Part shown: positions 1-29,770 of the stretch, piece after piece
Layout: the number at the start of each line of letters is the position of its first letter
Numbering within the stretch: the first letter of the stretch is position 1
Assembly (NCBI GenBank): GCA_965243375.1
Contig: CBDEUT010000009.1
Location: 896,401 to 960,400, forward strand
Direction: 5' to 3'
Source of the DNA: Alphaproteobacteria bacterium
GTDB lineage: Bacteria > Pseudomonadota > Alphaproteobacteria > UBA828
Length of the DNA: 64,000 nt
Made by a program: the position numbers and the translations under genes
Notes under the pieces: model-generated
What the model was told of the DNA's origin: nothing
Seen by the model: the letters and a program-made list of their open reading frames with translations, nothing else
Databases searched by the model: none

Positions 1-718
1 TTACCCACGCCGGTGGGAGAGGAGTTAGCCGGTGGGATCGCGGCCTGGCCGGATGACTACCGCGAGTTGAAAGGCTGGAACGGAGGGGACGGCGCTCCCG
101 CAGGATGCCATGGAGGAAGCCGACGACGAGAGCTGCGAAGGACCTGCTGGACGGTCGGGCGCTGGAGACCATTCCCATCATGGAGTATGTCTGGGAGAGG
201 TCCAACAGGGTCCGGGCAAATGAGCAACTGCTACGCGGGCGTGGGTGAGCGGACGGACGGCATGACGGGAAAATACTGGCGGCGCGTCCGGTGCGCTCTG
301 GACACCGCGCCTTCGAGGCCGGACGATCCACGTTATCGACCGAAGGTGTCAGACGGCGCCTGGATGTGGAAACCGGCCGGTTGCTATTCGATGACGGACG
401 TACGATGCCCCGGCGACCGACCTCGGTAAAATCGCAACGGTACCGCCGAGTTGAGGGCAGGTCCGCCGCCGGCCGGGATACCGGATCGCATATGAGGCAA
501 GAAGGTCGTGAAGAACTGGCTGGAGGTCATCTGGGCGGAAGCACGCGTAGGAAGCGAAGACCTGGCCCTGGCAGGGTTCTCGGTCGTCGGAGGAAACCCA
601 ACGTCAAAGACTTACGGCTTGGCACCGGTAGGCCGTTCGGCAACTGACCTCGCCCGCACAATTGAAACTCGTCCGGCAATGCTTGTAAGTGCAACGATGC
701 AACTCTTGGGAGGGACTG

Positions 719-922
719 ATGAAAGTCAGCATCAAAGATTTCGGCGTCGATATGGAAGTGAAGAACAGAGGGATTGAGTTTGAGATGCACTACAATGCTG
801 GTACTTTCAAGGGCAATTGTTATGTCACAAAGAGTGGCCTGATCTGGTGCGAAGGTAAAACCCAAAAGAAAAACGGCATTAGAGTTTCATGGGACGAATT
901 CATCGATTGGATGAATAGCTGA
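719..922 (+). CDS. small hypothetical protein (67 aa; MKVSIKDFGVDMEVKNRG...WDEFIDWMNS) in an AT-richer segment upstream of the TerB gene
   Basis: ORF in a locally lower-GC stretch (about 650-1250); balanced amino-acid composition; internal ATG at 719 chosen over the longer ORF start at 689; no recognisable domain. Confidence 0.35.
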   Translation: MKVSIKDFGVDMEVKNRGIEFEMHYNAGTFKGNCYVTKSGLIWCEGKTQKKNGIRVSWDEFIDWMNS

Positions 923-1245
923 ACACACTCACTCGTATTCTCCGGGATTGAATACAGCAGAATATGCCGTGTGGCCCCCCTTGATTCGGATTCCATCGCT
1001 ACAAGCGCGGTGTTCGCCGTGCGGATGTGCGATTCAATTCGCCACCACGATCTTGTGGATTTGTACAGAGCCGCGGGGTTGACGGCTGGCCTGCTACCGG
1101 TCTGGATGCTACATCGAGTATCAGGCAAGGAGGTCGTGGACACGGTGTAAATTGAACTTGGCAACAAAGCTCTTCCACGAACAGGTGACTTCCTCCGCGA
1201 ACTCGAGATTACTCCCTTACCCTCGGACTATCCGGCACGACAGAA

Positions 1246-3798
1246 ATGAACGAAGAATCCAATACGACGACTATCATCGTCGTCCTCGTAGTGCTCGGAT
1301 TGTTGGTCATCGGCACTATATTCCTCACACGATTCATCGTGCGTCGCATTTCGCGTGCGTTTTCGCGTCAGCCATCTCAGCAGCGCGCAGGCCAAAGAGA
1401 GACGAAGGAGAAAAAGGGGTCTCCCAAGGATGCTCCCGGCTCCGCTTTCAAGGAGCCCACGCTCGGACCGAAAACCTCAGCTCGTGAGCATACTGCCCCC
1501 AAGACCCAACGTCCGGAGGCGCCAGTCGCCCGCACAGCTCCTCCAAAGTCCCAGACCCCAGAATCGCCGCCGGTCGTCGGCCTGTCCTCTGGCGAGTCCC
1601 ACCCCCAGGACGCGTCGCCTCCTTCCAAGGAGCCCACGTCAAGTACAACGCGCCGAACGAGGACTAAACGGCGCGTCGGATCAGGATGGGTTCCCAAGGA
1701 CGGCAGCGCCTATGTCGGCGGCCGGGAGATTGGCGGCATGGTTTACATTGGTCGAGGGCCGCGTACCGGTAGCTTCAACGAACCGGACAACGCCTTTATC
1801 GATCCGAGCAAGAACGTCGCCACGCGCGGCGGCGACTATGAGGGCCAGGGCATGGACTTCTGGCCCAACTATTCGACCATCGATGCTCGGTCACGAGCGA
1901 CTTATCTTGACTGGCTGTCCAGCGGCCGCTCTGACACTCGCTACGACGTCGGATTTGTGTTTCTTTACTTTTATGGGCTCGAGCGACGAGTCTTTGTCGA
2001 CAGGACGGAACCGCAGGAACGTGCCGGCATCATTGCCGAAGTTCGCAGACTGCTTGAGGTGTACGGCGATGACCACTCGATACGTCGTTACCTCGGCGCC
2101 TTCCTTGATACGACGAGCCTCATGGACTCGAGCGACGATCCCCAACCCGTTTTCGAGCACGATGGATACGAGATGCCGGCGAATGTGTTGCTCGCACTCG
2201 GTCGAATGGCGGCACGCGCCGAGCCACTGACGTCGGATTGGATTCTGTCCTGGTTCCTATGCCATCCCGAGACAAGGTTGAGAACACCAGCCAAGCGCGC
2301 CTTTGCCGAGTTCAAAGCTTACTTTCGTCACATGTTCGATAAAGAGTACACGGATGGGCTGAAGATTCGCACGCCAAAGCGGCGTTTGAAACTCCAGTAT
2401 CACGCCGCATCGGGAAATTTTGCGACAGATCTGAAGGAGTACCTGGGCGATATACCCGATGTTTCGAGTCTCTCGGCGCCACTCCGTATTGCGGAAAGGA
2501 TAGCCGACACGAGTGCTGATGACCTGGACAAGTACAGTCGTTACCTCGGGCGCAATCCCGATGGGCAAGGCACCATTGAGGCCCACGCCCTCTTGCCCGA
2601 AGCCCTGTGGCTGTTGTTCCCATGTCCCGAGAAGGAGGAGCTTCAGACCTGGACGACGGAACAGATCGAGTCCGGCGGGCTCGTGCCGGTCGAAGACGTC
2701 GTCGAGCGACTGGAAGGGGCTCGGCCTGACAAGATCGGGAAGCGCCAGCTGATCGGGGTAGCCGATGCGCTTGCGAGACTCGGCGTGGGCATGGCGCCCG
2801 ATCCACGTTTCGCTCTCAGGAAGCCGCAATTCGGCGAACCCGTGGTTCTGTTCCATCTGCCGAGAGACACACGCATGATCGAGAGCCCGGGCGAAGCGTA
2901 TCGAAGCGCGATCCTCAACCTCGCGGTCGCGACGCTTGTAGCCCACGCGGATGGCCACATCGATCATGCGGAGCGGGAGCATATGGTTGGTCAGATCGAT
3001 GCCAATCGATCGGTAACCGATGCCGAGCGGGCGCGGCTGCACGCGAATCTCTCCTGGATGATCGCTGTCCCGCCCGACATCGGCATGTTGCGGACCCGGC
3101 TTCGCAACACGCCCGAAGAGCTGCGAAGCGCGCTGGGTCAATTGGCGGTCATCGCAGCGGGGGCAGATGGCGCGATCGACCCGGAGGAAATTCGCGTCAT
3201 CGAGCGACTCTATGCGGTGATGGGCTTGGAGCGCGAGCGTGTTTACAGCGATTTGCACGGGCTCACCTCTGCGCCGGAGCCGGTGACTGTGCGCCCTGCA
3301 GATCAAGGTACGCGCGAGTTTGCGATCCCTTCGCCACCACCAGAGGCGCCCGCAGATGCCGTGACCCTGGATGCGGCCCGCGTATCAGCTGTGATGGCCG
3401 ACACCGCGCGTGTCAGCCAGGTGCTCGGCGACATTTTCGCGGACGGCGATGACGAAGATGAGGAAAGTGTCGACGACAGCGTTACCGAAGCAAGCGATGA
3501 ATTCAGTGGACTCGACGCGTCACACAGGGCTGTCGTGTCGGTGCTGATCACGCGCCGCCAATGGACAGAGGACGAGGTCGCGGTGCTGACCGACGAGAAT
3601 CAACTGATGGCCGCGGGCGCACTCGAGACCATCAATGAGTGGTCCTTCGGCAAGTACGATGACTCCCTAATCGAAGAATACAATGGCTATGAGATAAACG
3701 TAAGCGCCGCGCCGTCACCCTCGTTGTTGTCTGAGATTTTCGTGGTCATCTGGACCCCGTCAACGACGGAGGTGACAGATGACAGACACATTGCATGA
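1246..3798 (+). CDS. membrane-anchored TerB-N / TerB / TerB-C domain protein (Shango SngA-like); C-terminus altered by IS66 insertion
   Basis: N-terminal TM helix (IIVVLVVLGLLVIGTIFLTRFIV) followed by a Pro/Lys/Ser-rich low-complexity linker; two ADG-x-ID-x-E TerB-type motifs (AHADGHIDHAEREHM, AAGADGAIDPEEIRVIERLY); acidic C-terminal module (DDEDEESVDD...TINEWSFGKYDDSLIEEYNGYEIN) typical of TerB-C; the last 35 codons and the stop lie inside the IS66 left end. Confidence 0.8.
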   Translation: MNEESNTTTIIVVLVVLGLLVIGTIFLTRFIVRRISRAFSRQPSQQRAGQRETKEKKGSPKDAPGSAFKEPTLGPKTSAREHTAPKTQRPEAPVARTAPPKSQTPESPPVVGLSSGESHPQDASPPSKEPTSSTTRRTRTKRRVGSGWVPKDGSAYVGGREIGGMVYIGRGPRTGSFNEPDNAFIDPSKNVATRGGDYEGQGMDFWPNYSTIDARSRATYLDWLSSGRSDTRYDVGFVFLYFYGLERRVFVDRTEPQERAGIIAEVRRLLEVYGDDHSIRRYLGAFLDTTSLMDSSDDPQPVFEHDGYEMPANVLLALGRMAARAEPLTSDWILSWFLCHPETRLRTPAKRAFAEFKAYFRHMFDKEYTDGLKIRTPKRRLKLQYHAASGNFATDLKEYLGDIPDVSSLSAPLRIAERIADTSADDLDKYSRYLGRNPDGQGTIEAHALLPEALWLLFPCPEKEELQTWTTEQIESGGLVPVEDVVERLEGARPDKIGKRQLIGVADALARLGVGMAPDPRFALRKPQFGEPVVLFHLPRDTRMIESPGEAYRSAILNLAVATLVAHADGHIDHAEREHMVGQIDANRSVTDAERARLHANLSWMIAVPPDIGMLRTRLRNTPEELRSALGQLAVIAAGADGAIDPEEIRVIERLYAVMGLERERVYSDLHGLTSAPEPVTVRPADQGTREFAIPSPPPEAPADAVTLDAARVSAVMADTARVSQVLGDIFADGDDEDEESVDDSVTEASDEFSGLDASHRAVVSVLITRRQWTEDEVAVLTDENQLMAAGALETINEWSFGKYDDSLIEEYNGYEINVSAAPSPSLLSEIFVVIWTPSTTEVTDDRHIA

Positions 3799-4204
3799 AC
3801 GAGTGACGGAGGACGCCACCGACGCTTCGGTCGCGGTCGCGACGAGCGCGCACGGCGCACGGGTCTGGCCGGAAGCGGTGAAGGCGCGGATCGTGGAGGA
3901 GACGTTCGAGGAGGGAGCGACGGTGGCGGGGGTTGCCCGGCGTCACGGCCTCTCACGGACGCAGTTGAGCGGCTGGCGGCGCATGGCTCGGGACGGGCTT
4001 CTCGGCCCGGTCGCCGGCGCGGGCGACGATCCGTTCGGCCTGGTCCCGGTGACGGTGTCGGTCGCTGCTGAGCGGAACGGCGCGGCCTCGGTGCCCGCGG
4101 ATGGTATCGCGATCGAGATCGCCGACATCCGGGTGGTGGTGCCGCCGGACTTCGACGCGGGGCACCTGTCGCGCATCCTGGTCTGCGTTCGGGCCGCGCC
4201 ATGA
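3779..4204 (+). CDS. tnpA: IS66 accessory protein TnpA (orf1)
   Basis: 141 aa with the ...ARIVEETFEEGATVAGVARRHGLSRTQLSGWRR HTH typical of IS66 TnpA; stop overlaps the tnpB start. Confidence 0.85.
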   Translation: MTDTLHERVTEDATDASVAVATSAHGARVWPEAVKARIVEETFEEGATVAGVARRHGLSRTQLSGWRRMARDGLLGPVAGAGDDPFGLVPVTVSVAAERNGAASVPADGIAIEIADIRVVVPPDFDAGHLSRILVCVRAAP

Positions 4205-4554
4205 TCCTGACCGGGGAGAAGATCCGGGTCTGGCTGGCGACCCGCCCCGTCGACTTCCGAAAGGGACATGACGGGCTGTCGGCGGTGGTGCAGACGGTGC
4301 TGGGTCACGACCCCTATAGCGGCGCGGTCTTCGCCTTCCGCTCCAAGCGAGGCGACAGAATGAAGATCCTGGTCTGGGACCGCACCGGGCTGGTCATGGT
4401 CTACAAGCGCCTGGAGGGCGGCGGCTTCCAGTGGCCGCGCCCCTCGGACGGCGTGATCGGACTGTCGCCGGCGCAGTTCTCGGCGTTGTTCGAAGGTCTC
4501 GACTGGAAGGCGGTCCGGGCCGTGCGACGGCCTCGGCCGCGCCAGGCGGCCTGA
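4201..4554 (+). CDS. tnpB: IS66 TnpB (orf2)
   Basis: 117 aa, MILTGEKIRVWLATRPVDFRKGHDGLSAVV...VFAFRSKRGDRMKILVWDRTGL, canonical IS66 Orf2. Confidence 0.9.
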   Translation: MILTGEKIRVWLATRPVDFRKGHDGLSAVVQTVLGHDPYSGAVFAFRSKRGDRMKILVWDRTGLVMVYKRLEGGGFQWPRPSDGVIGLSPAQFSALFEGLDWKAVRAVRRPRPRQAA

Positions 4555-4700
4555 CCGCGCAGCTTGCCGTTTCACCGGGGAACGGTGTCCATCCCACCGT
4601 CTCCCCGGTGTCGCCAAGACGAGCTATCCGGCCCCGTTTACGGCGGGGCCGGAAGCATGTTCACCTTGCGTTACCTCATTGATTCTGCTAGAGGAATCCC

Positions 4701-6329
4701 ATGATAACCAGCATGGGAAGCGCCGTTCCCGTGAGTGATCTGCAACGCCGTCTGGCGGCCGTCGAAGCCCAACTTGCGAAGGAGCGTGCCGAGCGCAAGG
4801 CCGCCGAGGACGCGCTGGCTGTGTCCGAGCGGGCGCGCGAACGCCTGGAGCGGATCATCGCCTCGCTGAACCATGCCGTGTGGGGCGCGCGCTCGGAGAA
4901 GCGCCATGCCGATCAGGACCGGCTGCCGCTGTTCGAGGACATCGCGGTCGCCGAGGGGATGCTGGCGGAAGCCCAGGAGAAGGCCGACGCGGCGACCGGC
5001 AGGCAGCGGCGCAAGCCACAGCCGACCAATCGCAACCTCGGCCATCTGCCCAAGCACCTCGAACGCTTCGAGAAGGTGATCGAGCCGGAGAGCGCGGAGT
5101 GCCCTTGCGGCTGCGGCGAGATGGTGAAGGTCGGCGAGGACCGCACCGAGCGGCTCGACGTCGTGCCGGCGAAGTTGAGGGTGCTGGTGACGATCCGGCC
5201 GAAATACATCTGCCGCGCCTGCGAAGGCAAACAGAGCACCCAGGCGCCGGCGCCGGAATATCTGGTGCCGCGCGGCCTGCCGACCGAGGCGCTGGTGGCG
5301 CACACGCTGGTCGCCAAGTTCGCCGATCACCAACCGTTCTACCGTCAGAGCGAGGCATACCGTCGCGAGGGGATCGACCTCGACCGCACCATGCTGGGGA
5401 ACTGGGCGGGGCGCGGGATGCAGGTGCTGGCCCCGGTGATCGACCGGATGATCGAGCACCTCAAGGCGTCGGACGGTCTGTTCATGGACGAGACCACGGT
5501 GCCGGTGATGGCGCCGGGGACCGGCAAGACGCGCCTCGACTATCTGTGGGCGATCGCCCGCGATCAGCGCGGCTATGGCGGGGCCGACCCGCCGATCGTG
5601 GTGTTCCACCACTCGCGCCATCGAAGTGCGAAGGTCGCTCTTGAGTTGATGCGGGGCTACACCGGCGGCGGCCCGCTGCACGTGGACGGCTACAGGGTGT
5701 ACGACGCGCTCGGCGATCCGAAGCAGACGGTCAGCCCATGGGTGCTTGCCTACTGCTGGGTCCACTGGCGGAGACGCTTCGTCGACTTCCAGCGCGGCAC
5801 GGCCTCGCCCGTGTGCGAGGAAATCCTCGAACGGATCGCGGCGCTGTACCGGATCGAGGCCATGGTGCGCGGCCACCCGCCGGAGCTTCGGCTGAAGGCG
5901 CGGCAGGAGTTGTCGGCACCGATCGTCGAGGCCATGCGGCCCTGGCTTGAGGCCCAGCTCGACCGTCTGTCCAGCGCGTCCGAACTCGCCAAGCACATCC
6001 GATATGCCCTCAAGCGCTGGGACGGCCTGTGCCGGTTCCTCCATGACGGGCGTATCGAGATGGACACCAACCCCATCGAGAACCTCATCCGCCCGGTGAA
6101 GCTCACAAAGAAAAACGCGCTCTTCGCCGGCAGCGACGACGGCGCCAGGACATGGGCGCGGTGTGCCAGCCTGATCGGCACCTGCAAGCTCAACGGCATC
6201 AATCCGCAGGTCTACCTGACCGACACCCTGCGCCGGATCGTCGACATGCACCCCGTGTCACGCATCGACGAGCTCATGCCCTGGAACTTCGCTCCGACAA
6301 TCCCGGGCGTCACCCGTCAACAAGGGTGA
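4701..6329 (+). CDS. tnpC: IS66-family transposase TnpC
   Basis: 542 aa; N-terminal leucine zipper/coiled coil, CPCGCG...CRAC zinc finger, DETT DDE core, C-terminal conserved region of IS66 TnpC. Confidence 0.9.
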   Translation: MITSMGSAVPVSDLQRRLAAVEAQLAKERAERKAAEDALAVSERARERLERIIASLNHAVWGARSEKRHADQDRLPLFEDIAVAEGMLAEAQEKADAATGRQRRKPQPTNRNLGHLPKHLERFEKVIEPESAECPCGCGEMVKVGEDRTERLDVVPAKLRVLVTIRPKYICRACEGKQSTQAPAPEYLVPRGLPTEALVAHTLVAKFADHQPFYRQSEAYRREGIDLDRTMLGNWAGRGMQVLAPVIDRMIEHLKASDGLFMDETTVPVMAPGTGKTRLDYLWAIARDQRGYGGADPPIVVFHHSRHRSAKVALELMRGYTGGGPLHVDGYRVYDALGDPKQTVSPWVLAYCWVHWRRRFVDFQRGTASPVCEEILERIAALYRIEAMVRGHPPELRLKARQELSAPIVEAMRPWLEAQLDRLSSASELAKHIRYALKRWDGLCRFLHDGRIEMDTNPIENLIRPVKLTKKNALFAGSDDGARTWARCASLIGTCKLNGINPQVYLTDTLRRIVDMHPVSRIDELMPWNFAPTIPGVTRQQG

Positions 6330-6394
6330 CGGCGCGGCGCTTACAGATAAACGGCGACGTCGCCCAACAGTTGATGCGTTGACGGGAGAGGAAC

Positions 6395-7717
6395 ATGAAG
6401 CGTCCCAAGATCAAGCGGCGCGAGCGCGACACGATCATCCAGGCCTTGCGTGCAGGCGTCGTCCCCAAGCTGGGCCTGCGGCACATCCAAGTCGGGCGGG
6501 CGCGAGAGACCACCGAAATGGTCCGAGATGTCGAACGGATCGGCGAAGGGGGCGCCTCCATCCGCTTCGTGATTGGAGAGTATGGATCGGGCAAGACGTT
6601 CTTCCTCAATCTCGTTCGGCTCATTGCCTTGGAGAAGGGACTGGTCGTGCTTTCGGCGGACTTGGCGCCCGACCGACGCATCCATGCCACGGGCGGGCAA
6701 GCCCGTTCGCTGTATGCGGAGCTCACGCGAAATGCCTCGACCCGCACGAAACCGGAGGGCGGCGCGCTCGCCAGCGTGGTGGAGAGGTTCGTCACCCAGG
6801 CGGTCCGCGAGGCGGACGCCTCCGAGCGAACAGCGGATGCCGTGATCCGAGACAAGCTGGACCATCTCGAGGAGCTGACGGGCGGCTACGACTTCGCCAC
6901 GGTCATCGCCAGGTATTGGGAAGGGCACGAGACGGGTGACGACGAGCTGAAGTCGAATGCGCTGCGCTGGCTCAGGGCCGAGTTCGCGACCAGGACGGAT
7001 GCGCGCAAGGCGCTCGGCGTTCGCACGATCATCGATGACTCCAGCGTCTACGATCACCTGAAGCTCCTGTCCGCATTCGTGCGCGAGGCGGGCTACGGCG
7101 GATTGCTGGTGGAGCTCGATGAACTCGTAAACCTCTACAAGCTCACCAACAGCCAGGCACGTAACGCCAACTATGAACAGATTCTCCGCATCCTGAACGA
7201 CGTTCTCCAAGGCAGTGCCGCGCATCTCGGCTTCATGCTGGGCGGCACCCCGGAGTTTCTCATGGACACGCGGCGGGGCCTCTACAGCTACGAAGCGCTC
7301 CAGTCGCGGCTCGCGGAGAACACCTTCGCACGAGACGGACTGGTCGATCTGTCCGGGCCGGTCATGCGTCTTTCCGGCCTGACGAAGGAAGATTTGTTCG
7401 TGCTGTTGGCCAACGTCAGGCGCGTGTTTCTGGGAGACGAGACGGGTGCCGCGCCGGACGATGCCCTGAAGGCGTTCATGGCGCACTGCTCGCAGCGGAT
7501 CGGCGACGTCTATTTCCGGACGCCGAGAACCACGGTCACCGCCTTCGTGAACATGCTCTCGGTCATCGAGCAGAACCCGGGGACGGCATGGCAGGACCTC
7601 GTCGACGATGTTGAGATCGTGGCGGATGGCGGCGATGACTTGAGCGACATCATCGACAACGAGGCAGCGAAGAGTGGGCAGGAGGCTGACGATGACCTCA
7701 CCAGCTTCCGCCTCTGA
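6395..7717 (+). CDS. P-loop ATPase (Shango SngB-like)
   Basis: 440 aa; Walker A GEYGSGKT near residue 60, Walker B-like LLVELDEL; RBS GGGAGAGG 5 nt upstream; 12 nt downstream of the reconstructed pre-insertion stop of the TerB gene. Confidence 0.8.
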   Translation: MKRPKIKRRERDTIIQALRAGVVPKLGLRHIQVGRARETTEMVRDVERIGEGGASIRFVIGEYGSGKTFFLNLVRLIALEKGLVVLSADLAPDRRIHATGGQARSLYAELTRNASTRTKPEGGALASVVERFVTQAVREADASERTADAVIRDKLDHLEELTGGYDFATVIARYWEGHETGDDELKSNALRWLRAEFATRTDARKALGVRTIIDDSSVYDHLKLLSAFVREAGYGGLLVELDELVNLYKLTNSQARNANYEQILRILNDVLQGSAAHLGFMLGGTPEFLMDTRRGLYSYEALQSRLAENTFARDGLVDLSGPVMRLSGLTKEDLFVLLANVRRVFLGDETGAAPDDALKAFMAHCSQRIGDVYFRTPRTTVTAFVNMLSVIEQNPGTAWQDLVDDVEIVADGGDDLSDIIDNEAAKSGQEADDDLTSFRL

Positions 7718-9944
7718 TCAGCAATCCCGAGCCTTCGATCTTCTGGCGGAGCCGATCCGACGCTGGATCTGGCAAATGAAGTGGACTGCGCTTCGAGACA
7801 TTCAGGAGCGCGCGATCCCTTACCTGATCGACGGCGATGACGACCTCATCATTGCGGCCGCGACCGCCGGGGGAAAGACGGAGGCGGCGTTCCTGCCGCT
7901 GATTTCGAGGGCCCTCACGACCGGAAGTGGCGAGGGCTTCGACCTGGTCTATGTCGGGCCCCTTCGGGCGCTCATCAACGATCAGTTCTGGCGGCTAGAA
8001 GAGCTGTGTGCGACGCTGGAGATACCGGTCCACCCCTGGCACGGCGACATCTCGCAGGCCGTGAAGGCGCGCGCCAGAAAGAACCCGCGCGGCGTCCTGC
8101 TCATCACGCCCGAATCGCTCGAAGCGATGTTCCTCCTGCGCAGCGCGGAGATACCCCGCCTCTTCGCGGACACCCAAGCCATCGTGATCGACGAGCTTCA
8201 TGCTTTGCTGGATTCCGAGCGGGGCGTTCATCTGCGCTCCCTGCTGACCCGGCTCGAACTCGCGGTCGGCCGTCGCATTCGGCGCGTCGGGTTGTCGGCG
8301 ACTCTGGGAGACATGGCGCTGGCCAATGCCTATCTGCGCCCTGAGGCGCCGGAGAAGGTGGGGCAACTGGTCAGCTCCGACGAGCAGGAGCTGCGTGTTC
8401 AGTTGCGCGCCTACATCGCCGGCCGACGCACAGAGCACCCTAGCCCAGAAGAAGCCGAGTCGAACGGTGCCGATATGCAGGATTCATCTGCGGCACGGGC
8501 CGTTGGCGAGCATATCTTCGATAAGCTTCGGGGAAGCAACAATCTTGTCTTTGCAGGGTCCCGGGGCAACGTCGAGCTCTATGCCGATCTCTTGCGCCGA
8601 ATGTGCGAGGAGAGACGTCTTCCGAACGAGTTCTTCCCTCATCACGCCAGCCTGTCTAGGGAGCATCGCGGCTTCGTGGAGAAGCGCCTCAAGGACGGCA
8701 ATCTGCCGGTCACTTCAATTTGCACGTCCACCCTGGAACTCGGGATCGACATCGGCAACGTGGTATGCGTCGGACAAATTGGCGCGCCATGGTCGGTCGC
8801 GGGACTCAAGCAAAGACTGGGGCGGTCAGGGCGGCGGGACGGCCAACCTTCCGTGCTCCGCATGTACGCCATTGAACCGGAGACCGACGCCGACTCGCAT
8901 CCCATCGACACGTTTCACCTAGGCCTGGTGCGCTCGATTGCCATGGTCGAACTGTTGGTCGAGAGTTGGTGCGAGCCGCCGAGACGGGAGGCGCTCCATC
9001 TCTCGACGTTGACACACCAGATCCTATCTGTGATCGCGGAACGGGGCGGGGCATCGGCGAAGCGGCTCTTTTCGACTCTTTGTGACCGCGGTCCGTTTCG
9101 GACAGTCGATTCAGCGCTATTTGATCGGCTCTTACGCCAGCTTGGCGACCCCGACATCGCACTAATCGAACAGGCGTCGGACGGTACGCTTCTGCTTGGC
9201 CGCGAAGGCGAGCGTGTCGTCGAGCACTACAGTTTCTACGCGGTCTTTCATACACCGCAGGAATACCGCGTCGTCCACGATACGAAGACCCTCGGAACGA
9301 TCCCCGTCGATATGCCGCTGACCCCGGACATGACAATCATATTCGTCGGTCGACGGTGGCGCGTTCTCGAGGTGCACGACAAGGAAAGAGTTATCGAAGT
9401 GACGCCCGACTATGCCGGCAAGCCGCCGCGCTTCGGAGGTGATGCAGGCGACGTACATGAGGTCGTCGTACGCCGCATGCGCGACGTGCTGCTCGCCGAT
9501 ATCGTGCCGCCCTATCTCGACAATACGGCTGCAGAAGTCCTTCGCTTTGCCAGAGCCGCCTATCGGCGGTCCGGCCTCGATGACGTACCCATTCGACCGC
9601 TCGGCGAAGATCGACATCTTCTCGCCCTATGGACTGGAACAGTCGGCACAGTTTCTTTGGCGCTTGTGCTGACGTGTCTTGGCTATCGTGTCGGCACTTA
9701 CGATGGCATTCTGGATGTGACATCACCGCGTTCGTGCACGAGAGGCCTCTCTTCACAGCTTGGGGACATCGCAACTGGAGAACTCGACTTGCCCGACCTC
9801 ATACGAGGCCGAGCAGGCGCACTGATCAACGAGCAGTTCCACCACTATCTCGGAGACGATCTATTGCTTTCAGATGCACTATCGAGGCGGTTGGACCTGA
9901 ATGCAGTACCAGGGATCGCCCAAAGATTGTGCTCACGGTTGTGA
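7692..9944 (+). CDS. DEAD/DEAH-box SF2 helicase (Shango SngC-like)
   Basis: Motif I AATAGGKTEAAF, Ia VGPLRALINDQ, II VIDELHAL, III SAT, VI QRLGRSGRR; start chosen at the ATG at 7692 with a perfect AGGAGG RBS 7 nt upstream (the ORF track starts at 7674); overlaps the upstream ATPase gene by 26 nt. Confidence 0.8.
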   Translation: MTSPASASDQQSRAFDLLAEPIRRWIWQMKWTALRDIQERAIPYLIDGDDDLIIAAATAGGKTEAAFLPLISRALTTGSGEGFDLVYVGPLRALINDQFWRLEELCATLEIPVHPWHGDISQAVKARARKNPRGVLLITPESLEAMFLLRSAEIPRLFADTQAIVIDELHALLDSERGVHLRSLLTRLELAVGRRIRRVGLSATLGDMALANAYLRPEAPEKVGQLVSSDEQELRVQLRAYIAGRRTEHPSPEEAESNGADMQDSSAARAVGEHIFDKLRGSNNLVFAGSRGNVELYADLLRRMCEERRLPNEFFPHHASLSREHRGFVEKRLKDGNLPVTSICTSTLELGIDIGNVVCVGQIGAPWSVAGLKQRLGRSGRRDGQPSVLRMYAIEPETDADSHPIDTFHLGLVRSIAMVELLVESWCEPPRREALHLSTLTHQILSVIAERGGASAKRLFSTLCDRGPFRTVDSALFDRLLRQLGDPDIALIEQASDGTLLLGREGERVVEHYSFYAVFHTPQEYRVVHDTKTLGTIPVDMPLTPDMTIIFVGRRWRVLEVHDKERVIEVTPDYAGKPPRFGGDAGDVHEVVVRRMRDVLLADIVPPYLDNTAAEVLRFARAAYRRSGLDDVPIRPLGEDRHLLALWTGTVGTVSLALVLTCLGYRVGTYDGILDVTSPRSCTRGLSSQLGDIATGELDLPDLIRGRAGALINEQFHHYLGDDLLLSDALSRRLDLNAVPGIAQRLCSRL

Positions 9945-9976
9945 TAAGTGAGCCACTTGACGATATCTGCGGTCAC

Positions 9977-10010
9977 GCACTGGTTCCAGTGCCACATTTC
10001 CTTTTTTTTA
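9977..10010 (+). terminator. candidate intrinsic terminator after the helicase gene
   Basis: Hairpin GCACTGG-TTC-CCAGTGC at 9977-9992, followed after 8 nt by a T8 run (10001-10009); spacing is atypically long. Confidence 0.35.
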
Positions 10011-10249
10011 TACTCATGGAGATGAGATTGACACAGAGACCTACAGGCTGCGAAACGACGAGGCTGTCAAAGCACTTCCTGCTTATCCGTGATTCTCATC
10101 CAGCGATGAGGGTTTTGTAGCGCATGGGGCGGTGCACGCCGCGTTTCGGCTGCTTGCGCGTCAGATCGGCGAACCAGCGATCGATCTGATTGACACTCGG
10201 TTCCGTCGAAAAGCGCAGCTATCGCCCCGCCCCAGTAATCGTATGGAAG

Positions 10250-10640
10250 CACGGAGACAAGACGGTTACCGGCGGCGCGGCGCATTTCCTTCAAGCTCGT
10301 CCCGGCGCTTCTCTGTTTGCGCAGCAAGCCGGGGCCCGGCAACCCCTGGGTGTTTCCCGGCCGCGTGCTCGGTACCCGTCTGCGCACACTGAACGCGTCG
10401 TGGCAGGTCGTTCGCAAGGAGGCCGGGCTCGAAGACGTTCGCCTGCATGACTTGCGCCACTCCTTCGCCTCGCGGGCGCTCGCCCTCGGGGAGAGTCTGC
10501 CGATGATCGGGAAACTGCTCGGTCACACGAAGGTGCAGACGACCGCGCGCTACGCACACCTTGGGAGGCACTCAGTGAAGGTCGCTGCCGTTCGGATACC
10601 CGCTTACCGAGTTGCAGCACTTACAGACTCAGCCTTTGCA
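10250..10640 (+). pseudogene. 3' fragment of a tyrosine integrase gene (remnant)
   Basis: Encodes only the C-terminal catalytic segment ...PWVFPG...LEDVRLHDLRHSFASRALALGESLPMIGKLLGHTKVQTTARYAHL, about 70% identical to the intact integrase at 12764-13945, then diverges; no N-terminal domain. Confidence 0.6.
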
Positions 10641-10874
10641 CAACGACAGCAACTGGGCAGAGTCACGCGGGCGCTCCGCCGCGGGGAGTCCCCATTCTGC
10701 ACCGAGCTGCGGAATGTTTCCTGACCGGCCACATCCATAGACTACCGGACACTCCCAACAGGAACACCACCGCAGCAATCCATCCGTTGTCACGCTTCCA
10801 CTTGGACCTAGTACCATTGACTCGATGGAATTACTATACGCGTAGAAGCCATTCAGATCAGGTACGGTTCCGCT

Positions 10875-12353
10875 ATGCCCCAGCAAGTCTATCGGATTCG
10901 CAGCGCCAAACATCTTATTGGCGAATATCATGAATTCCAAAAACAGGAAATCTACTTCGCCAAACCGGACGAACTCAACGATCCTATGGAAGGGCTTCGG
11001 AACATAGTTTGGAGAGGCGATGCGATCATGTGGGAAAACTTCTTTCGACACTACATATCGTGCCTGAATCACACTGTAGTCTTGGTCAAAGTGCTTGGAA
11101 ATAACACTATCGTACAAGCAGAACAAATCCCAATTTGCGGACTGGCAGACGAACATGAAACCCCAATGACGGCTGCAATTCTTGAGGAACTATGTTCCAG
11201 TGTTTTCGATAAATGCAAGCTCCACGCGTTGATACAAGATTTGGCAAATACGAATCACGCGGTCAGACGTGATGAACTGCTTGTCTACCTCAAACACATT
11301 CACTACATCACACTCGGAGAAATACAAAACATCCATATACGTCACAGCATGGCTTCAGGAGAAGCTCGACCCACTCCTCTTCAAGACCCGTTGGAGCTGC
11401 TTCAAGACCCGTTTGAGCTGCCCGAAAACATTCCCACATTGATTCAACGGCTCTATGAAGAGCAACCGGAAATCGCTCGGCCAGCATTGGCTGCTCTATT
11501 TTCTGTTTCGAATCTATTGTTCGATAACATGAATCTGATGCACAAGTACAGCAGTTCTCGACAGAACGATGGAAGCGAAACCCGCGCAAAGCAAAACCGC
11601 GAGTTCATTGTGCTCGATTTTCCGAGAAAATACCTTACTCGACTACCACGTATTCTATATCCTGATTGGTATGTCTCCTGCTTTCTTGAGGACTGTCGAA
11701 ATTCTTCCATATGGGGGCACTATGGAGATAATCATAAGGGGGCCTGTTTGATTTTCGATGCAAATGAAGACTCCGGACAGCTTGGACTGGAATTGAGGCG
11801 CATTACTGGTTTTTCTGGTCATCGTGACAAAAGCTTCGGCGAGATGACAACGAGATCGACATGGAATTACTCTTTGATGACGCTTTATAGTGTAGAATAT
11901 GAGGAAGAGTTGAGGGAGCTAGATTTTTTTCGTTCTATAGGTGTACTTCCCACAGGTCGACTTCTGTCCAAATGGTACACCGACCACGCGGGTAACCGCA
12001 GTATCTGCAGCGACCACATCGGGTCCGGTAACGAGGACTCGTGGCGTGAAGCGTATTGGGAGAAGTTCCATCAAGACATAGTCATAAAATCGCACGACTG
12101 GTCCTATGAGAAGGAAATGCGAATGATCCTAAGCAGTTCGATCTCGGACTTTACGGCAAAGACGTCGCGCAAGCTGACCTATCGATTTTCAAGCTTGAGA
12201 GGAGTTATTTTCGGGATCAGTATGACAGACAATGATAAGATGAAAATTATTGATATCGTGTTTGAAAAATGTCGCAACGAGAACAGGAATGATTTGAATT
12301 TTTTCAGGCATATTACAACCACGAGACGAAAGCTATCGAGAGGCATAGGTTGA
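10875..12353 (+). CDS. DUF2971-like protein (candidate standalone defence/Abi-type gene) in an AT-rich islet
   Basis: 492 aa; N-terminal motif VYRIRSAKHLIGEYHEFQKQEIYFAKPDELNDPMEG resembles the DUF2971 signature (LYKYRS...FS.P..FNDPFE) recalled from memory; gene and flanks (about 10640-12360) visibly much lower GC than surroundings. Confidence 0.65.
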   Translation: MPQQVYRIRSAKHLIGEYHEFQKQEIYFAKPDELNDPMEGLRNIVWRGDAIMWENFFRHYISCLNHTVVLVKVLGNNTIVQAEQIPICGLADEHETPMTAAILEELCSSVFDKCKLHALIQDLANTNHAVRRDELLVYLKHIHYITLGEIQNIHIRHSMASGEARPTPLQDPLELLQDPFELPENIPTLIQRLYEEQPEIARPALAALFSVSNLLFDNMNLMHKYSSSRQNDGSETRAKQNREFIVLDFPRKYLTRLPRILYPDWYVSCFLEDCRNSSIWGHYGDNHKGACLIFDANEDSGQLGLELRRITGFSGHRDKSFGEMTTRSTWNYSLMTLYSVEYEEELRELDFFRSIGVLPTGRLLSKWYTDHAGNRSICSDHIGSGNEDSWREAYWEKFHQDIVIKSHDWSYEKEMRMILSSSISDFTAKTSRKLTYRFSSLRGVIFGISMTDNDKMKIIDIVFEKCRNENRNDLNFFRHITTTRRKLSRGIG

Positions 12354-12763: not shown

Positions 12764-13945
12764 CTACAGGATGTCGCTGGCAATGCTGTCTGCGATCCGC
12801 TCCGCCGCCTCGTGAACCGAGTCCTGCGCAAGATGGGCGTAGCGCGCCGTCGTCTCGATATCGTGGTGTCCAAGCAGCTTGCCGATCACCGGAAGGGTCT
12901 CGCCGAGTGCGAGCGCCCGGGAGGCAAAGCTGTGTCGGAGGTCGTGCAGCCGCACGTCCTCCAGATCGGCACCGGCCCGGACAATGCGCCAGGCACGGTC
13001 GAGGCCGCCGCTGAGGCGTCCGTCGCGGTCGCCGCCCGGAAACACCCAGGGGCCGTCGTTCCGACGCGGCAGCGTCTCCAGAAGCCCCACCGCCGCCGAC
13101 GGAAGCTGGACCGTGCGGGGACCAGACTTGGCGTCGGCGAGGCGGAGCTCGCCGGCTTCGGGGTCGACGTCCGTCCAGCGCAACGTGAGGATCTCGCTCT
13201 TGCGGCAGCCGGTCAGCATCAGCAGGTGGATCGCCGTCACGGCAAGCGGCGAAACGGCGCCGCTGTCGAGGGCCTCGTGCAGCGCCTGTCCGAGGCGGTC
13301 GAACTCGGCATCGGTCAGGAAGCGCTCGCGGGAGCGCTCGGGATACTTCTCCACCGAGCGGCAGGGATTGAAGCCCTCGGGCGCCAGGCCCCAGCCCTCG
13401 GCCAGACGGTACATGTGCGACAGGACCTTGACCGCCCGGTTCGCCGTGACCGGGCGGTCCGACAGTTCGCGGTGCAGCTCGACGACGTGGCTTCGTTCCA
13501 CCGCCTCCAGGGGCAGCCTGCCGAGGGCCGGCAGGATGTGGCGGCGGAGCACACCACTGACGCTCGTCTGCGTCCTCGGTTTCAGCCTCGCCTCGACATG
13601 CTCCTCCAGGTAGCGCTCGGCAAGATCGGCCACGGTGGGCCCGCCGTTGAGCCTGGCGGCGAGCGGCAGGGGCACCGGGTCCTCGCACGCCCTGATGCGC
13701 GCGATGATGAGCGCCGCCCGCTGGCGGGCCTCCTCGGCATTGAGCACGCCGTGGCGGCCGACCGTCACCCGCTTCGGCAGCCTGTTGCCCGTCCGCTCCC
13801 TGGCCTGGGCGACGTAGACCTTGCCGCCGGACGGATAGACCCGGATCCCGAAGCCGGTCAGGTCCCGGTCCCAGAACACGGTGTCGCGGTCGACTTCCAG
13901 CGCTGCCACGGTGCGGTTGGAGAGGGTCTTCTTCTGCACTGCCAT
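12764..13945 (-). CDS. int: tyrosine recombinase / phage-type integrase (copy 1)
   Basis: 393 aa from the ATG with GAGGAGG RBS (MAVQKKTLSNRTVAALEV...); N-terminal arm-binding (DUF4102-like) region, C-terminal HDLRHSFAS...TTARYAHL with catalytic Tyr. Confidence 0.9.
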   Translation of the reverse strand: MAVQKKTLSNRTVAALEVDRDTVFWDRDLTGFGIRVYPSGGKVYVAQARERTGNRLPKRVTVGRHGVLNAEEARQRAALIIARIRACEDPVPLPLAARLNGGPTVADLAERYLEEHVEARLKPRTQTSVSGVLRRHILPALGRLPLEAVERSHVVELHRELSDRPVTANRAVKVLSHMYRLAEGWGLAPEGFNPCRSVEKYPERSRERFLTDAEFDRLGQALHEALDSGAVSPLAVTAIHLLMLTGCRKSEILTLRWTDVDPEAGELRLADAKSGPRTVQLPSAAVGLLETLPRRNDGPWVFPGGDRDGRLSGGLDRAWRIVRAGADLEDVRLHDLRHSFASRALALGETLPVIGKLLGHHDIETTARYAHLAQDSVHEAAERIADSIASDIL

Positions 13946-13956
13946 GTTGCGCCTCC

Positions 13957-15141
13957 TCACGCCGCCTCGGCACGGCCGCGCAGGACGTGGGCGGCGATGC
14001 TGTCGCCGGTCCGCGCGGCGGCGGCCTTCTCCGCGTCGCGCACCAGGTGGGCGTACTTGGCGGTGGTGCCAACCGTGACATGACCCAGCAGCCTACCGAT
14101 CACCGGCAGGCCCTCGCCAAGGGCCAGCGCCCGCGAGGCGTAGCTATGGCGCAGGTCGTGGACGCGCACATCGTGGAGTCCGGTCTCTCTCCTGATCCTC
14201 CGCCAGTACGAGGAAAGACAGGCCAGTCGGGAACCGGGCTTCGTGCCCCGCAGTACCCAGGGAACTCCCTCGGCCCGCTTGATGCCGTCCAGCACTTTCA
14301 GCACCGGCCCGGTCAGCGGCACCATGCGCGGCCCGGTCTTCGAATCGCGCAAGCGCAAGACGCGCGCCGTGCGGTCGACGTCGTCCCATTTCAGGGTGAG
14401 GATCTCGTCCGTGCGGCAGCCGGTGAGCATCAGCAGGCGGATCGCGGCGATCGCCGAGGGCACCATCGAGCCCTCGGATTCGAACATCTTCAGCGCCGTC
14501 CCCAGCCGCCGGAACTCCTCCGGAGTCAGGAAGCGCTCGCGGGACTTCCCTCGGTAATGGCGGACATGCCGGCTCGGCTTGCGGCCGGGCGGTACCATCC
14601 CCCAGCTCTCGCCCAACGACAAGATCTTCGACAGCACCCACATCGCCTGGTTGGCCGCCGCCGGCGTCGCCCGCAGCTTGTGGTGGAGCGCCGTGAGGTC
14701 TTCGGACCCGACATCCTCGAGCGCCTTCGTCCCCAGGGCCGGGAGGATATGGTTCCGGATCGACACCCGGTAGTTCCTGGCTGTGCTCGGCTTGCAGCGC
14801 GTCTCGACGTAGTTCTTGAGCACGAGTTCGGACAGGTCGGCGACGGTGGGCGGTGGCGGCGCTTTCGACGGCTTGGGGTCCTCGCCCCGCTTGATGCGGT
14901 CGATGACGACGGCGGCCTCGCGCCGGCGGTCCTCGACGGTCTTGGTGCCGACCCGTCCGAGCGTCACCCGCTTCAGGCCCGCCGGTCCCCTGGACTGAAC
15001 GATGTAGAGCTTGCGTCCGGTGGCATGCACCCGCACGCCGAAGCCGGCAAGGTCGCGGTCCCAGAAGATCGTGTCCTTGCCGCCGGCCTTGAGCCCGTCC
15101 ACAATCCGCTTGGTCAGTCTGAGGGTGCTGCGCTTCGGCAT
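13957..15141 (-). CDS. int: tyrosine recombinase / phage-type integrase (copy 2, tandem paralogue)
   Basis: 394 aa from MPKRSTLRLTKRIVDG (RBS GGGGAGAGAAACC); same domain layout, VHDLRHSYASRAL...TAKYAHL; stop 12 nt upstream of the copy-1 start. Confidence 0.9.
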   Translation of the reverse strand: MPKRSTLRLTKRIVDGLKAGGKDTIFWDRDLAGFGVRVHATGRKLYIVQSRGPAGLKRVTLGRVGTKTVEDRRREAAVVIDRIKRGEDPKPSKAPPPPTVADLSELVLKNYVETRCKPSTARNYRVSIRNHILPALGTKALEDVGSEDLTALHHKLRATPAAANQAMWVLSKILSLGESWGMVPPGRKPSRHVRHYRGKSRERFLTPEEFRRLGTALKMFESEGSMVPSAIAAIRLLMLTGCRTDEILTLKWDDVDRTARVLRLRDSKTGPRMVPLTGPVLKVLDGIKRAEGVPWVLRGTKPGSRLACLSSYWRRIRRETGLHDVRVHDLRHSYASRALALGEGLPVIGRLLGHVTVGTTAKYAHLVRDAEKAAAARTGDSIAAHVLRGRAEAA

Positions 15142-15264
15142 GGTTTCTCTCCCCGAAGGCGTTCGTCCAAAGGATGGCGAAGATGAGGAAGCCGATGGAA
15201 ACTCCGGGCTCCATCTCTCCACCCCTGGAGCCGCTGGCCTCTTCCTCCCTTTCTATCACCGCGT

Positions 15265-15420
15265 GAGAAAGCGTTCGGTCACGCAGTGATGAGAGTGGTG
15301 GATTCAACGATTGAGTGTTCGCTTCCAGTCCTTGCGGAGGGGCCGCAACCAGACGTCCTTTTTCGGCTGGGCTCGCTTCGTATGCCTGTCATAGCGTCCT
15401 CTTCCCTGGGTGGTGCCGAC
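15265..15420 (+). repeat. left 156-bp terminal inverted repeat
   Basis: GAGAAAGCGTTCGGTCACGCAGTGATGAGAGTGGTGGATTCAACG...GGTGGTGCCGAC; direct comparison with the reverse complement of 18862-19017. Confidence 0.85.
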
Positions 15421-15505
15421 GCAGTGATGGAATGGGCTGAGGTCATTTTCGGCACCCTCAACAAGACACTGGTAACGCCAACGACGATTCGATATCGTCG
15501 CGCGC

Positions 15506-18100: not shown

Positions 18101-18978
18101 CCGGCGTCGTCGAGTGCCGCTATTACGGGCGCGACTTCACCGCCGACGAGATGGCGCTGCTGCGCGCCCTGATCGCCGCCGATCCGCCGCCGACCCGCGC
18201 CAACCTGGCGAGGGAGTTCTGCCGGCGTACCCGCTGGCTCAAGCCCGACGGCGGCCTCAAGGACATGATGGCCAAGGTGACCATGCTCGCCATGCACCGC
18301 GACGGCGTGATCGAGCTGCCGCCGCCGAGGGGCAAACAGGGCCGGCCCAAGCCCATCGTCTTCGGACCCGACACCGAGCCGCCGCTGTTCCCCGCGCCGA
18401 CCGCCCTCGACGAGGTTCGGCCCCTCGACTTCCGCACCGTCGTGCGCAACACCCGCGAAGGGAAGCTCTGGAACGAGTTCGTCGCCCGCTATCACTATCT
18501 CGGATACAAGCCCCTGGTCGGCGCCCAGATGCGCTACGCCGTCCATGATCGGAACGGCTGGCCGCTGGCCATGCTCGGCTTCTCCACCGCCGCCTGGAAG
18601 CTCGCCCCGCGCGACGACTTCATCGGATGGACGCCCGAGCTGCGCGAGAAGAACCTGCCGCTGGTGGTCGACAATCCGCGCTTCCTGATCCTGCCGTGGA
18701 TCGAGATCCCCAACCTCGGCTCGCACATCCTTGCCATCGTGCGTCGGCGCCTGCCCGCCGACTGGACCGAGCGCTACAACACCACGCCCGTGCTCATCGA
18801 GACCTTCGTCGAGACCCCGCGCTACACCGGCGCCGTCTACAAGGCCTCGGGCTGGACGCGGGTCGGCACCACCCAGGGAAGAGGACGCCATGACAGGCAT
18901 ACGAAGCGAGCCCAGCCGAAAAAGGACGTCTGGTTGCGGCCCCTCCGCAAGGACTGGAAGCGAACACTCAATCGTTGA
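18097..18978 (+). CDS. DUF4338-like accessory protein, translationally coupled to the transposase
   Basis: 294 aa; ATG overlaps the transposase stop (ATGA at 18097-18100); ARYHYLGYKPLVGAQMRYAVHD...NPRFLILPWIE... resembles DUF4338 (the DruA domain) from memory; C-terminus runs into the right TIR. Confidence 0.6.
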   Translation: MTGVVECRYYGRDFTADEMALLRALIAADPPPTRANLAREFCRRTRWLKPDGGLKDMMAKVTMLAMHRDGVIELPPPRGKQGRPKPIVFGPDTEPPLFPAPTALDEVRPLDFRTVVRNTREGKLWNEFVARYHYLGYKPLVGAQMRYAVHDRNGWPLAMLGFSTAAWKLAPRDDFIGWTPELREKNLPLVVDNPRFLILPWIEIPNLGSHILAIVRRRLPADWTERYNTTPVLIETFVETPRYTGAVYKASGWTRVGTTQGRGRHDRHTKRAQPKKDVWLRPLRKDWKRTLNR

Positions 18979-19017
18979 ATCCACCACTCTCATCACTGCG
19001 TGACCGAACGCTTTCTC
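18862..19017 (-). repeat. right 156-bp terminal inverted repeat (carries the last about 39 codons of the DUF4338-like gene)
   Basis: Reverse complement matches 15265-15420. Confidence 0.85.
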
Positions 19018-19800: not shown

Positions 19801-20064
19801 ATGAGCGCCGACACGCTGCCCGACGACCCATCCTACGTCTTCTGCCCCGAACCCGCCGTCGGCGACGACCCCTGCCGGATTCTCATCCTCGTCGAGGACA
19901 TGACCGTCGCCATTCCCACCGCCCTGGTCGCGCTCACGCGGCATGAGGGGATCCGGCTGTGCGACCGGCTGAACCACCGCCTCGGATACGACAACGCGGC
20001 CTGGACGGCGATCGCGCAGCGGTTCATGCGCCGCGCGGCCGCACACGGCCACACCGTGCACTGA
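19801..20064 (+). CDS. hypothetical protein (87 aa)
   Basis: Internal ATG of a longer ORF; MSADTLPDDPSYVFCPEPAVGDDPCRILILVEDMTVAIP...; no recognised domain. Confidence 0.35.
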   Translation: MSADTLPDDPSYVFCPEPAVGDDPCRILILVEDMTVAIPTALVALTRHEGIRLCDRLNHRLGYDNAAWTAIAQRFMRRAAAHGHTVH

Positions 20065-20297
20065 GTCCTTCGCCGGCGGCGGCGCCCTGAGGCCTGGGGG
20101 GGGCCGCCCAAGCCGGACTTCGCCGCACCCCGGCGTTCCGGCCCGTACGGCCGCTCCCCACCGCATCGCCGCGATCCCCGCAGCCGCCCGTGCCCCTGTC
20201 CCGGCTGGAGAGCCGGAGTCGAGCGAGCGCAGGGCGAGCGTTCGGCGGTGGCGAGGGAGGGGTTCCCTCGCTGCCGGACGCGGCAGAGGAGACCCCG

Positions 20298-20453
20298 ATG
20301 TTCGATTTCAGCTCGGATTACGACCCCGTGACCCCGACGGCCGGCGAGCTGCTGGCCGAGCTGGGCTTCGACACCCGCGCGGTCCGCGATGCCCTGGCCG
20401 ACGACCGGGCCCGGCGCTGCCCCGACCGGGAGGCCCCGGCGGACAGGAGCTAG
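20298..20453 (+). CDS. small hypothetical protein (51 aa)
   Basis: ATG preceded by GAGGAGACC RBS; MFDFSSDYDPVTPTAGELLAELGFDTRAV... Confidence 0.3.
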   Translation: MFDFSSDYDPVTPTAGELLAELGFDTRAVRDALADDRARRCPDREAPADRS

Positions 20454-20553
20454 AGGAGGGCCTGGAGAAGACGAGCGGGAAGGGGCTGGAGAGAGCGTTC
20501 TCCGGTCCCGCCGCTCGACCATCGTCATCAACCAGACCTGAAGGAGCATCGTG

Positions 20554-21033: not shown

Positions 21034-21263
21034 TTCTTGACTGTCATCCTCCCTCCCAACTCGGGCGGCCGCTCCGGCGGCTGCCCATTTCTTTTGCAGC
21101 CGGCCCGGAGTCCGTCCCCGGCCGGGCCTCGCGCCCGCGCTTCGCGCGGCGCGTCGCCCACCAGCGCCGGCAGGAGTCCGGGGTTGGCCGGTATCGGGGC
21201 GTCGCTTTCCGGACCCGAGGAGTCTGCCATGTCGAATCCCTGCCATGCCGCCGGGGCCGCGTC

Positions 21264-22440: not shown

Positions 22441-22500
22441 TACCCGTTACCGTTACCCTGCCTCCCTAGGGGTTCGAGGCGGTAACGGTTTTCGGTAACG
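22441..22500 (+). repeat. inverted CGTTACC/GGTAACG repeat cluster between convergent genes
   Basis: CCGTTACCGTTACC...GGTAACGGTTTTCGGTAACG; could be a bidirectional terminator or protein-binding site. Confidence 0.3.
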
Positions 22501-29740: not shown

Positions 29741-29770
29741 CTTCGCCGGAGGATCCGGCGGCCCGGCGCG

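Follow-up and report, generated by a model that had tools for sequence, protein, structure and literature searches.

An alphaproteobacterial locus with the gene content of a Shango anti-phage system, interrupted in sngA by an IS66-family element

The stretch of DNA considered here, which we refer to as the window, comprises 64,000 nucleotides of an alphaproteobacterial genome (GTDB lineage Bacteria; Pseudomonadota; Alphaproteobacteria; UBA828; GenBank assembly GCA_965243375.1, contig CBDEUT010000009.1, positions 896,401 to 960,400 of the forward strand). Near its start, at 1246-9944 on the plus strand, lies a locus that is very likely a bona fide Shango anti-phage system, sngA-sngB-sngC, of a clade common in Alphaproteobacteria, with an IS66-family insertion sequence (IS) recently inserted in sngA. 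The locus contains three large co-oriented open reading frames (ORFs) at 1246-3798 (850 amino acids, aa), 6395-7717 (440 aa) and 7674/7692-9944 (756/750 aa), and three smaller ORFs between the first and the second are tnpA, tnpB and tnpC of the IS66 family. The best PADLOC family for the three large ORFs was SngA (profile PDLC03958; 3e-85, 286 bits), SngB (PDLC03959; 2.1e-174, 579 bits) and SngC (PDLC03960; 8.6e-262, 869 bits), respectively, and the profile match was full-length for SngB and SngC. An initial annotation of this DNA had recognized the combination of a TerB protein, an ATPase and a helicase as the composition of Shango, and had allowed for a new variant if homology turned out to be weak; with matches as strong as these, the known Shango system takes the place of that possibility. 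Several long minus-strand ORFs inside the genes (e.g., 2257-3306, 4671-6251 and 6341-7486) overlap plus-strand genes with strong family matches, and we took them to be shadow frames of the kind common in high-GC DNA.

The IS occupies 2,645 bp (3700-6344, plus strand). At its ends it has inverted repeats of 27 nt (left, 3700-3726; right, 6318-6344), which start with GTAAGCGCCGCGCC and show 96% complementarity. Immediately outside the repeats lies a perfect 8-bp direct repeat, the target-site duplication AGATAAAC, with its left copy at 3692-3699 and its right copy at 6345-6352. The transposase genes tnpA (3779-4204; Pfam HTH_Tnp_1, 5.7e-13), tnpB (4201-4554; TnpB_IS66, 1.3e-38) and tnpC (4701-6329; DDE_Tnp_IS66, 2.8e-90, plus zf-IS66, LZ_Tnp_IS66 and IS66_C) are all intact and are transcribed in the same orientation as the operon. 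The assignment to the IS66 family is based on tnpA, tnpB and a DDE-type tnpC, on the inverted repeats at both ends and on the target duplication of 8 bp, all of which are present. The insertion point is 27 nt upstream of the sngA stop codon. Codons 1-818 of sngA (1246-3699) are followed in frame by 32 codons from the left end of the IS (3700-3798; VSAAPSPSLLSEIFVVIWTPSTTEVTDDRHIA), which replace the native tail GDVAQQLMR, and the last nine sngA codons with the stop codon are left orphaned on the other side of the element (6353-6382, plus strand); the relatives P0005, P0006 and P0009 end in the same native tail. Because its last 32 codons are IS sequence, the 850-aa frame is an IS-fused frame. 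Joining 1246-3699 to 6353-6382 gives an IS-free sngA of 827 aa that ends in EINGDVAQQLMR (or, over a longer stretch of the same end, EYNGYEINGDVAQQLMR) directly before the stop codon.

A 10,138-bp metagenome contig from ENA, L082, is 99% identical to the window at 1071-3700 and at 6345-10852, and it carries the empty site, the two matches overlapping by exactly one AGATAAAC(G). Its first gene encodes 827 aa and differs at 1 residue from the reconstructed SngA, and its SngB and SngC differ from those of the window at 1 and 4 residues, respectively. With a single AGATAAAC at the junction, 99% identity on both sides and an 827-aa SngA, L082 proves the insertion-free reconstruction, which is therefore not only inferred. 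That the insertion was a recent event is indicated by a target duplication without mismatches, by transposase genes that are still intact and by an empty allele with 99% identity. The element was absent from L082 and from all 80 related genome loci, which we define as the loci of the 80 best SngB relatives (73-91% identity). We found no second copy of it in the window and, by megablast, no close copy on plasmids.

With the IS removed, the restored sngA stop codon is followed after 12 nt by the ATG of sngB, and sngB overlaps sngC by 26 nt. The same 12-nt gap and 26-nt overlap are seen in L082, and also in L001, a more distant relative (84% DNA identity over 5.7 kb). The ribosome-binding region of sngB is intact, and sngC has a perfect AGGAGG ribosome-binding site (7680-7685) 6 nt ahead of its ATG at 7692. 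One tight operon of three co-oriented genes, with just these spacings, had been proposed in the initial annotation from a reconstruction, and the empty site of L082 and the spacings in L001 now confirm that reconstruction. The operon without the IS has a GC content of 61.3%, compared with 70.3% in the window at 20-64 kb, in agreement with the earlier remark that it lies below the backbone. As found, three IS genes separate sngA from sngB, and the adjacent, co-oriented arrangement of a Shango operon is regained only when the IS is taken out; intactness of the genes is lost for sngA only, sngB and sngC being intact. At the sequence level, the locus has all testable defining features of Shango apart from gene intactness. 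A promoter and terminator scan of 800-10400 gave hits at chance level and did not locate the operon promoter, and no tRNA genes or Rfam families were found in the whole window.

Upstream of sngA, at window 511-1138, we noted a low-GC segment (51%) of about 560-630 bp that L082, although 99% identical, does not have. An imperfect 17-nt direct repeat, AGGCAAG(A/G)AGGTCGTG, flanks the segment, which ends about 110-125 nt before the sngA start. Within it lies an ORF of 67 aa (MKVSIKDFGVDMEV...DWMNS, about 720-922) that has a good ribosome-binding site and for which Pfam and PADLOC returned no match. The window may have gained this segment or L082 may have lost it, and an effect on the sngA promoter is conceivable.

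The SngA protein carries all three TerB-type modules in Pfam, with TerB_N at residues 154-349 (1.9e-58), TerB at 559-664 (3.5e-09) and TerB_C at 700-818 (1.5e-21), and a middle helical region between TerB_N and TerB. Against the PADLOC SngA profile, residues 117-818 align to positions 24-516 of 528, and the individual fragments map in order: residues 132-360 to profile positions 30-197, 354-535 to 191-310, 552-677 to 306-394, and 702-818 to 394-516. The fused protein stops at profile position 516, whereas the IS-free SngA scores 9e-87 and reaches position 524. Since the fragments cover the profile in order, the core of this SngA is canonical. The nominal 528 positions of the profile understate the real length of the protein; the 120 best database homologues of SngA are about 625-1,050 aa long, and nearly all of them have TerB_N, TerB and TerB_C.

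Outside the profile, residues 1 to about 130 begin with a short acidic segment; next come a hydrophobic helix (about 8-31), which hydrophobic-segment analysis identified as a transmembrane helix, an R-rich stretch and a P/S/T/K-rich linker that is variable in length (about 35-145 in this protein). Reading the sngA frame further upstream in the related loci, 76 of which have complete flanks, showed an in-frame hydrophobic segment ahead of the TerB_N core in 67 of these 76. A length of 770-830 aa is normal for SngA, and an N-terminal transmembrane anchor with a disordered linker is the rule in the clade. The membrane anchor and the TerB-N, TerB and TerB-C modules ascribed to gene 1 at the outset are consequently borne out, the length of 850 aa is not, and the suggestion that this is an unusual SngA does not hold up, as its core follows the PADLOC profile throughout and the anchor recurs both in the clade and in a Klebsiella plasmid copy described below.

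A peptidoglycan-binding motif precedes the helix in 3 of the 67 anchored loci. In some relatives (L006, L008 and L018), a signal or transmembrane segment and a peptidoglycan-binding domain of the PF01471 type come before the membrane helix and the TerB_N core, which suggests that a protein otherwise located in the cytoplasm has a module facing the periplasm; PF01471 is also recorded for many database homologues of SngA. At the other end of the protein, the C-terminal motif E[IV]NGD[IVL]AQ[QE]LMR recurs among homologues; about 120 of them conserve the tail, and its conservation extends beyond the alphaproteobacterial proteins to more distant ones. The identical IS-derived tail is found in the database protein P0003, the NCBI call for this gene in the same genome, which has 686 aa and starts at M165. 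Shorter database entries of this kind probably reflect the choice of another start codon rather than a different protein. A sequence search found no solved structure related to SngA.

The second gene, sngB (6395-7717, plus strand), encodes a 440-aa BrxD-like P-loop ATPase (Pfam BrxC_BrxD, 3.6e-151) that covers positions 1-438 of the 439 in the PADLOC SngB profile. It has the Walker A motif GEYGSGKT at residues 61-68 (K67), invariant in 83 loci, and a Walker-B-like stretch, LLVELDE, at 237-243, and so answers to the 440-aa ATPase starting 12 nt past the reconstructed stop that had been described earlier. Neither a sequence search nor a profile built from 19 SngB sequences found a relative of SngB among solved structures. 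The third gene, sngC (7692-9944, plus strand), encodes a 750-aa Lhr-like superfamily 2 (SF2) DExH helicase with matches to Pfam DEAD and Helicase_C, and covers positions 3-718 of the 720 in its PADLOC profile. The protein is made up of two RecA domains and a winged helix, together with a C-terminal region rich in beta structure, and the expected helicase motifs are in place (I, AATAGGKT; Ia, PLRAL; II, DELH; III, SAT; VI, QRLGRSGR). The solved structures nearest to the SngC core by sequence are those of Lhr and MrfA (PDB 5v9x, 7lhl, 6znp), and for the SngC C-terminus the only matches were to Lhr and winged-helix domains. None of SngA, SngB and SngC showed a nuclease, toxin or pore domain.

The association of a TerB_N protein with an ATPase and a helicase was reportedly first predicted in 2012 by Anantharaman, Iyer and Aravind. 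Anti-phage activity of Shango has since been published for P. aeruginosa PA14 (Johnson et al., 2023; PMC10250203) and for E. coli (Millman et al., 2022; bioRxiv 10.1101/2022.05.11.491447). These validated systems agree with the locus described here in gene content and order, a TerB-type protein being followed by an ATPase and by a DEAD/DEAH helicase, and like it they occur in mobile or defence-island contexts. The window copy differs from them in belonging to an alphaproteobacterial high-GC clade and in having the 3' end of sngA interrupted by the IS66-family element. As a yardstick we used a Shango-type operon known from enterobacterial conjugative plasmids, in the copy on the IncF plasmid pCRE-055-1 of K. 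pneumoniae (NZ_CP061405.1; HCV81_RS27280, RS27275 and RS27270), which has the same three-gene order and tight spacing, with a SngA of 769 aa that likewise has an N-terminal transmembrane helix, a SngB of 438 aa and a SngC of 731 aa. The same PADLOC families were best for this operon (350, 618 and 936 bits), which, unlike that of the window, is uninterrupted. Because the window scores come near to these, its Shango system is, by this sequence comparison, a typical and not a marginal member. Three considerations weigh against the identification. Membership and likeness were judged by PADLOC profiles rather than by direct alignment to the E. coli or P. aeruginosa PA14 proteins; identity to the enterobacterial plasmid homologues is only 30% for SngA, 58% for SngB and 42% for SngC; and protection against phage by the window locus or its clade would follow by analogy with the published E. 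coli and P. aeruginosa systems.

Relatives of SngB are numerous, with at least 478 in a collection of species-representative genomes. The 80 best come mainly from marine Alphaproteobacteria (e.g., Rhodobacterales, Hyphomicrobiales and Sphingomonadales), and a few are from metagenome-assembled genomes (MAGs) labelled Bryobacterales, Poribacteria, Anaerolineales or Bacteroidota. In every related locus with enough flank, sngA, sngB and sngC are collinear and tightly spaced, with no insertions. Further relatives of SngB are found on 689 plasmids, which include 449 Klebsiella and 144 Salmonella records and 541 plasmids predicted to be conjugative. As a separate observation, the Shango operons in MAGs with the four labels above (L005, L013, L017, L022 and L045) encode SngB proteins 73-85% identical to that of the window, and these phylum-spanning copies reflect either recent inter-phylum transfer or binning contamination.

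We think it probable that the window copy is weakened or dead, because the IS both replaces the conserved tail of SngA and separates sngB and sngC from the operon promoter; the initial annotation did not mention this consequence. A SngA with 32 foreign residues in place of the conserved nine-residue tail would be expected to make this an attenuated or inactive copy, and sngB and sngC, now 2.65 kb from the operon promoter, would be transcribable only by read-through from the IS. Two findings speak against a dead copy: the fused SngA retains all three Pfam domains, and no terminator-like site was found from the end of tnpC (6329) to sngB (6395). Read-through expression of sngB and sngC is possible given this apparent lack of a terminator and the common orientation of the IS genes and the operon. 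The IS-bearing allele might accordingly still be a working defence, with a functional SngA-IS fusion and with sngB and sngC read through from the transposase genes, the more so as the ribosome-binding region of sngB and the ORFs of both downstream genes are preserved, within 1 and 4 residues of the IS-free allele. The replaced tail, however, is conserved from alphaproteobacterial to more distant homologues, an insertion at the 3' end of sngA was seen in none of about 76 related loci, and the stoichiometric coupling of sngA, sngB and sngC is lost. IS66 transposase genes are, moreover, normally weakly expressed. On balance we regard a working allele as the less likely outcome, with perhaps a minor share of the probability, and keep to a weakened or dead copy of Shango.

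Far less probable is a housekeeping or stress function for the locus, either as an Lhr-type DNA-repair helicase with an accessory ATPase or as a TerB protein with a role in tellurite or metal stress. The repair helicases Lhr and MrfA are the nearest solved relatives of SngC and share its SF2 DExH core, SngC matches the ligase-associated DEXH helicase family TIGR04121 (1.3e-62), and TerB was, as cited in parts of the Shango literature, first described in tellurite-resistance clusters. Yet the NCBIfam helicase scores fall far below the family cut-offs (TIGR04121, 212 vs. 850 bits; PRK13767, 175 vs. 849 bits), and for this reason SngC, which is always linked to sngA and sngB, is not an orthologue of Lhr or MrfA and we rejected an Lhr-type housekeeping helicase. 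A tellurite-resistance cluster was rejected as well, as no TerC, TerD or TerZ genes are nearby. A housekeeping role also fits poorly with an operon GC content below that of the backbone, with the integrases, ISs and conjugation genes around the locus, with a patchy distribution across phyla and on plasmids, and with the anti-phage activity demonstrated for the Shango family (Johnson et al., 2023; Millman et al., 2022).

The least probable reading, that genes 2 and 3 are the BrxD and BrxHI remnant of a Pgl-like type 2 BREX system, draws on a true homology, SngB matching BrxD (PADLOC, 7.8e-46; NCBIfam, 4e-44) and SngC matching BrxHI (3.9e-114) and being grouped with BrxHI, DruE and DpdJ in a study of Hachiman (PMC12278908), but was rejected because the Shango profiles score far above those of BREX (579 vs. 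155 bits for gene 2 and 869 vs. 380 bits for gene 3), the NCBIfam BrxD equivalog cut-off is missed (151 vs. 350 bits), no PglX-, PglZ- or PglW-type genes occur among the neighbouring ORFs scanned, and a TerB_N/TerB/TerB_C protein, the invariable upstream partner in relatives, stands where the methyltransferase, PglZ and kinase partners would be. Bunzi (BnzA) and Dionysus (DinB) share with Shango a TerB-type module and a proposed membrane link; their partners, however, are pore-forming or other membrane proteins and not an ATPase and a helicase, and they are without the TerB_N and TerB_C architecture.

As a member of the Shango family, the locus can be placed in a working model of how the system may act. 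SngA would be tethered to the inner membrane through its N-terminal helix, with the TerB_N/TerB/TerB_C body in the cytoplasm, and would work close to the envelope as a sensor or scaffold that has no enzymatic activity. The BrxD-like ATPase SngB would then couple a signal from SngA to SngC, or load SngC, and SngC would act as an Lhr-like DNA translocase, 3'-to-5' by analogy, on phage DNA or replication intermediates. Since no nuclease or toxin domain is encoded, interference might come about through the helicase action itself, or through host nucleases recruited to the unwound DNA. The membrane tether is supported by the hydrophobic N-terminal segment followed by an R-rich stretch and by the recurrence of the anchor in the clade. 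In the relatives the N-terminal module of SngA seems to be interchangeable: some have none, some a single transmembrane helix, and some a transmembrane helix preceded by a periplasmic domain that binds peptidoglycan. This interchangeability suggests a speculative and rather doubtful possibility, namely that Shango is stationed at the inner membrane or cell wall, where it would sense an envelope event at DNA entry and signal through the BrxD-like ATPase to the Lhr-like helicase. If so, the natural IS-fused allele, set beside its 99%-identical IS-free counterpart, might be used as a ready-made C-terminal-tail mutant for dissecting the signalling. The model is to be held with low certainty: its SngA-SngB-SngC relay is drawn by analogy, the 3'-to-5' polarity of SngC is taken from Lhr, and the proposed topology of SngA follows from hydropathy and the positive-inside rule, all of which count against it.

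Both discovery papers describe modest to strong protection and speculate on membrane surveillance (PMC10250203; bioRxiv 10.1101/2022.05.11.491447). A 2026 review still gives the mechanism of Shango as unknown, and we found no mechanistic study of the system in the literature searched up to mid-2026. A membrane anchor as the rule, together with a peptidoglycan-binding domain in some proteins, lends sequence-level support to the published speculation that TerB-type defence proteins act at the membrane, and this support comes from the survey of the SngA family and not from the window copy. The locus itself is an ordinary copy of a published system, damaged by an IS, real but not new, and detectable by standard tools. 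It has little significance beyond its annotation as a Shango system disrupted by an IS66 element, being one more defence operon hit by an insertion sequence inside a mosaic of mobile elements, and it makes the mechanism of Shango no more tractable than do the validated E. coli and P. aeruginosa systems.

The setting of the locus is a mosaic of integrative and conjugative elements (ICEs), and the accessory neighbourhood of ISs, integrases, a DUF2971 gene and an ICE that had been described for it was recovered in full. Directly after sngC lies a truncated C-terminal fragment of a tyrosine recombinase (10317-10724, plus strand), and further on there are two full-length tandem tyrosine integrases with Arm-DNA-binding domains (12764-13960 and 13957-15222, minus strand); together these look like the scars and junctions of stacked integrative elements. 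Between them, in a 45%-GC patch downstream of Shango, is the gene for a 492-aa DUF2971 protein (10875-12353, plus strand), which matches the PADLOC candidate defence family PDC-S31 (1.8e-23); this island may thus contain a second gene for defence. The mention of an ICE is supported by a conjugation gene set at 29571-42362 (minus strand), encoding a 1,211-aa TrwC relaxase with a helicase domain, TraH, TraN, TraU and a TraG-type P-loop protein.

Other mobile elements lie nearby. An element of about 3.75 kb (15265-19017) has inverted repeats of 156 nt at its ends, with 99% identity between them (15265-15420 and 18862-19017), and encodes an unusually long protein of 864 aa, the C-terminal half of which is an IS66-type DDE transposase; a further IS66 element is located at 42658-44244. 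A transposition-type module on the minus strand (22466-25796) encodes an rve integrase of 492 aa, a TniB-like ATPase of the AAA_22 type (351 aa) and a 341-aa AAA_25 protein whose C-terminus is a winged helix, and beside it, at 19833-22364, are two ORFs of 564 and 273 aa that gave no family matches. Finally, a 1,932-aa ORF at 45919-51717 (minus strand) contains at least six Calx-beta repeats, and DNA repeats of about 585 bp, about 89% identical, lie within it at approximately 47.8-49.6 kb.

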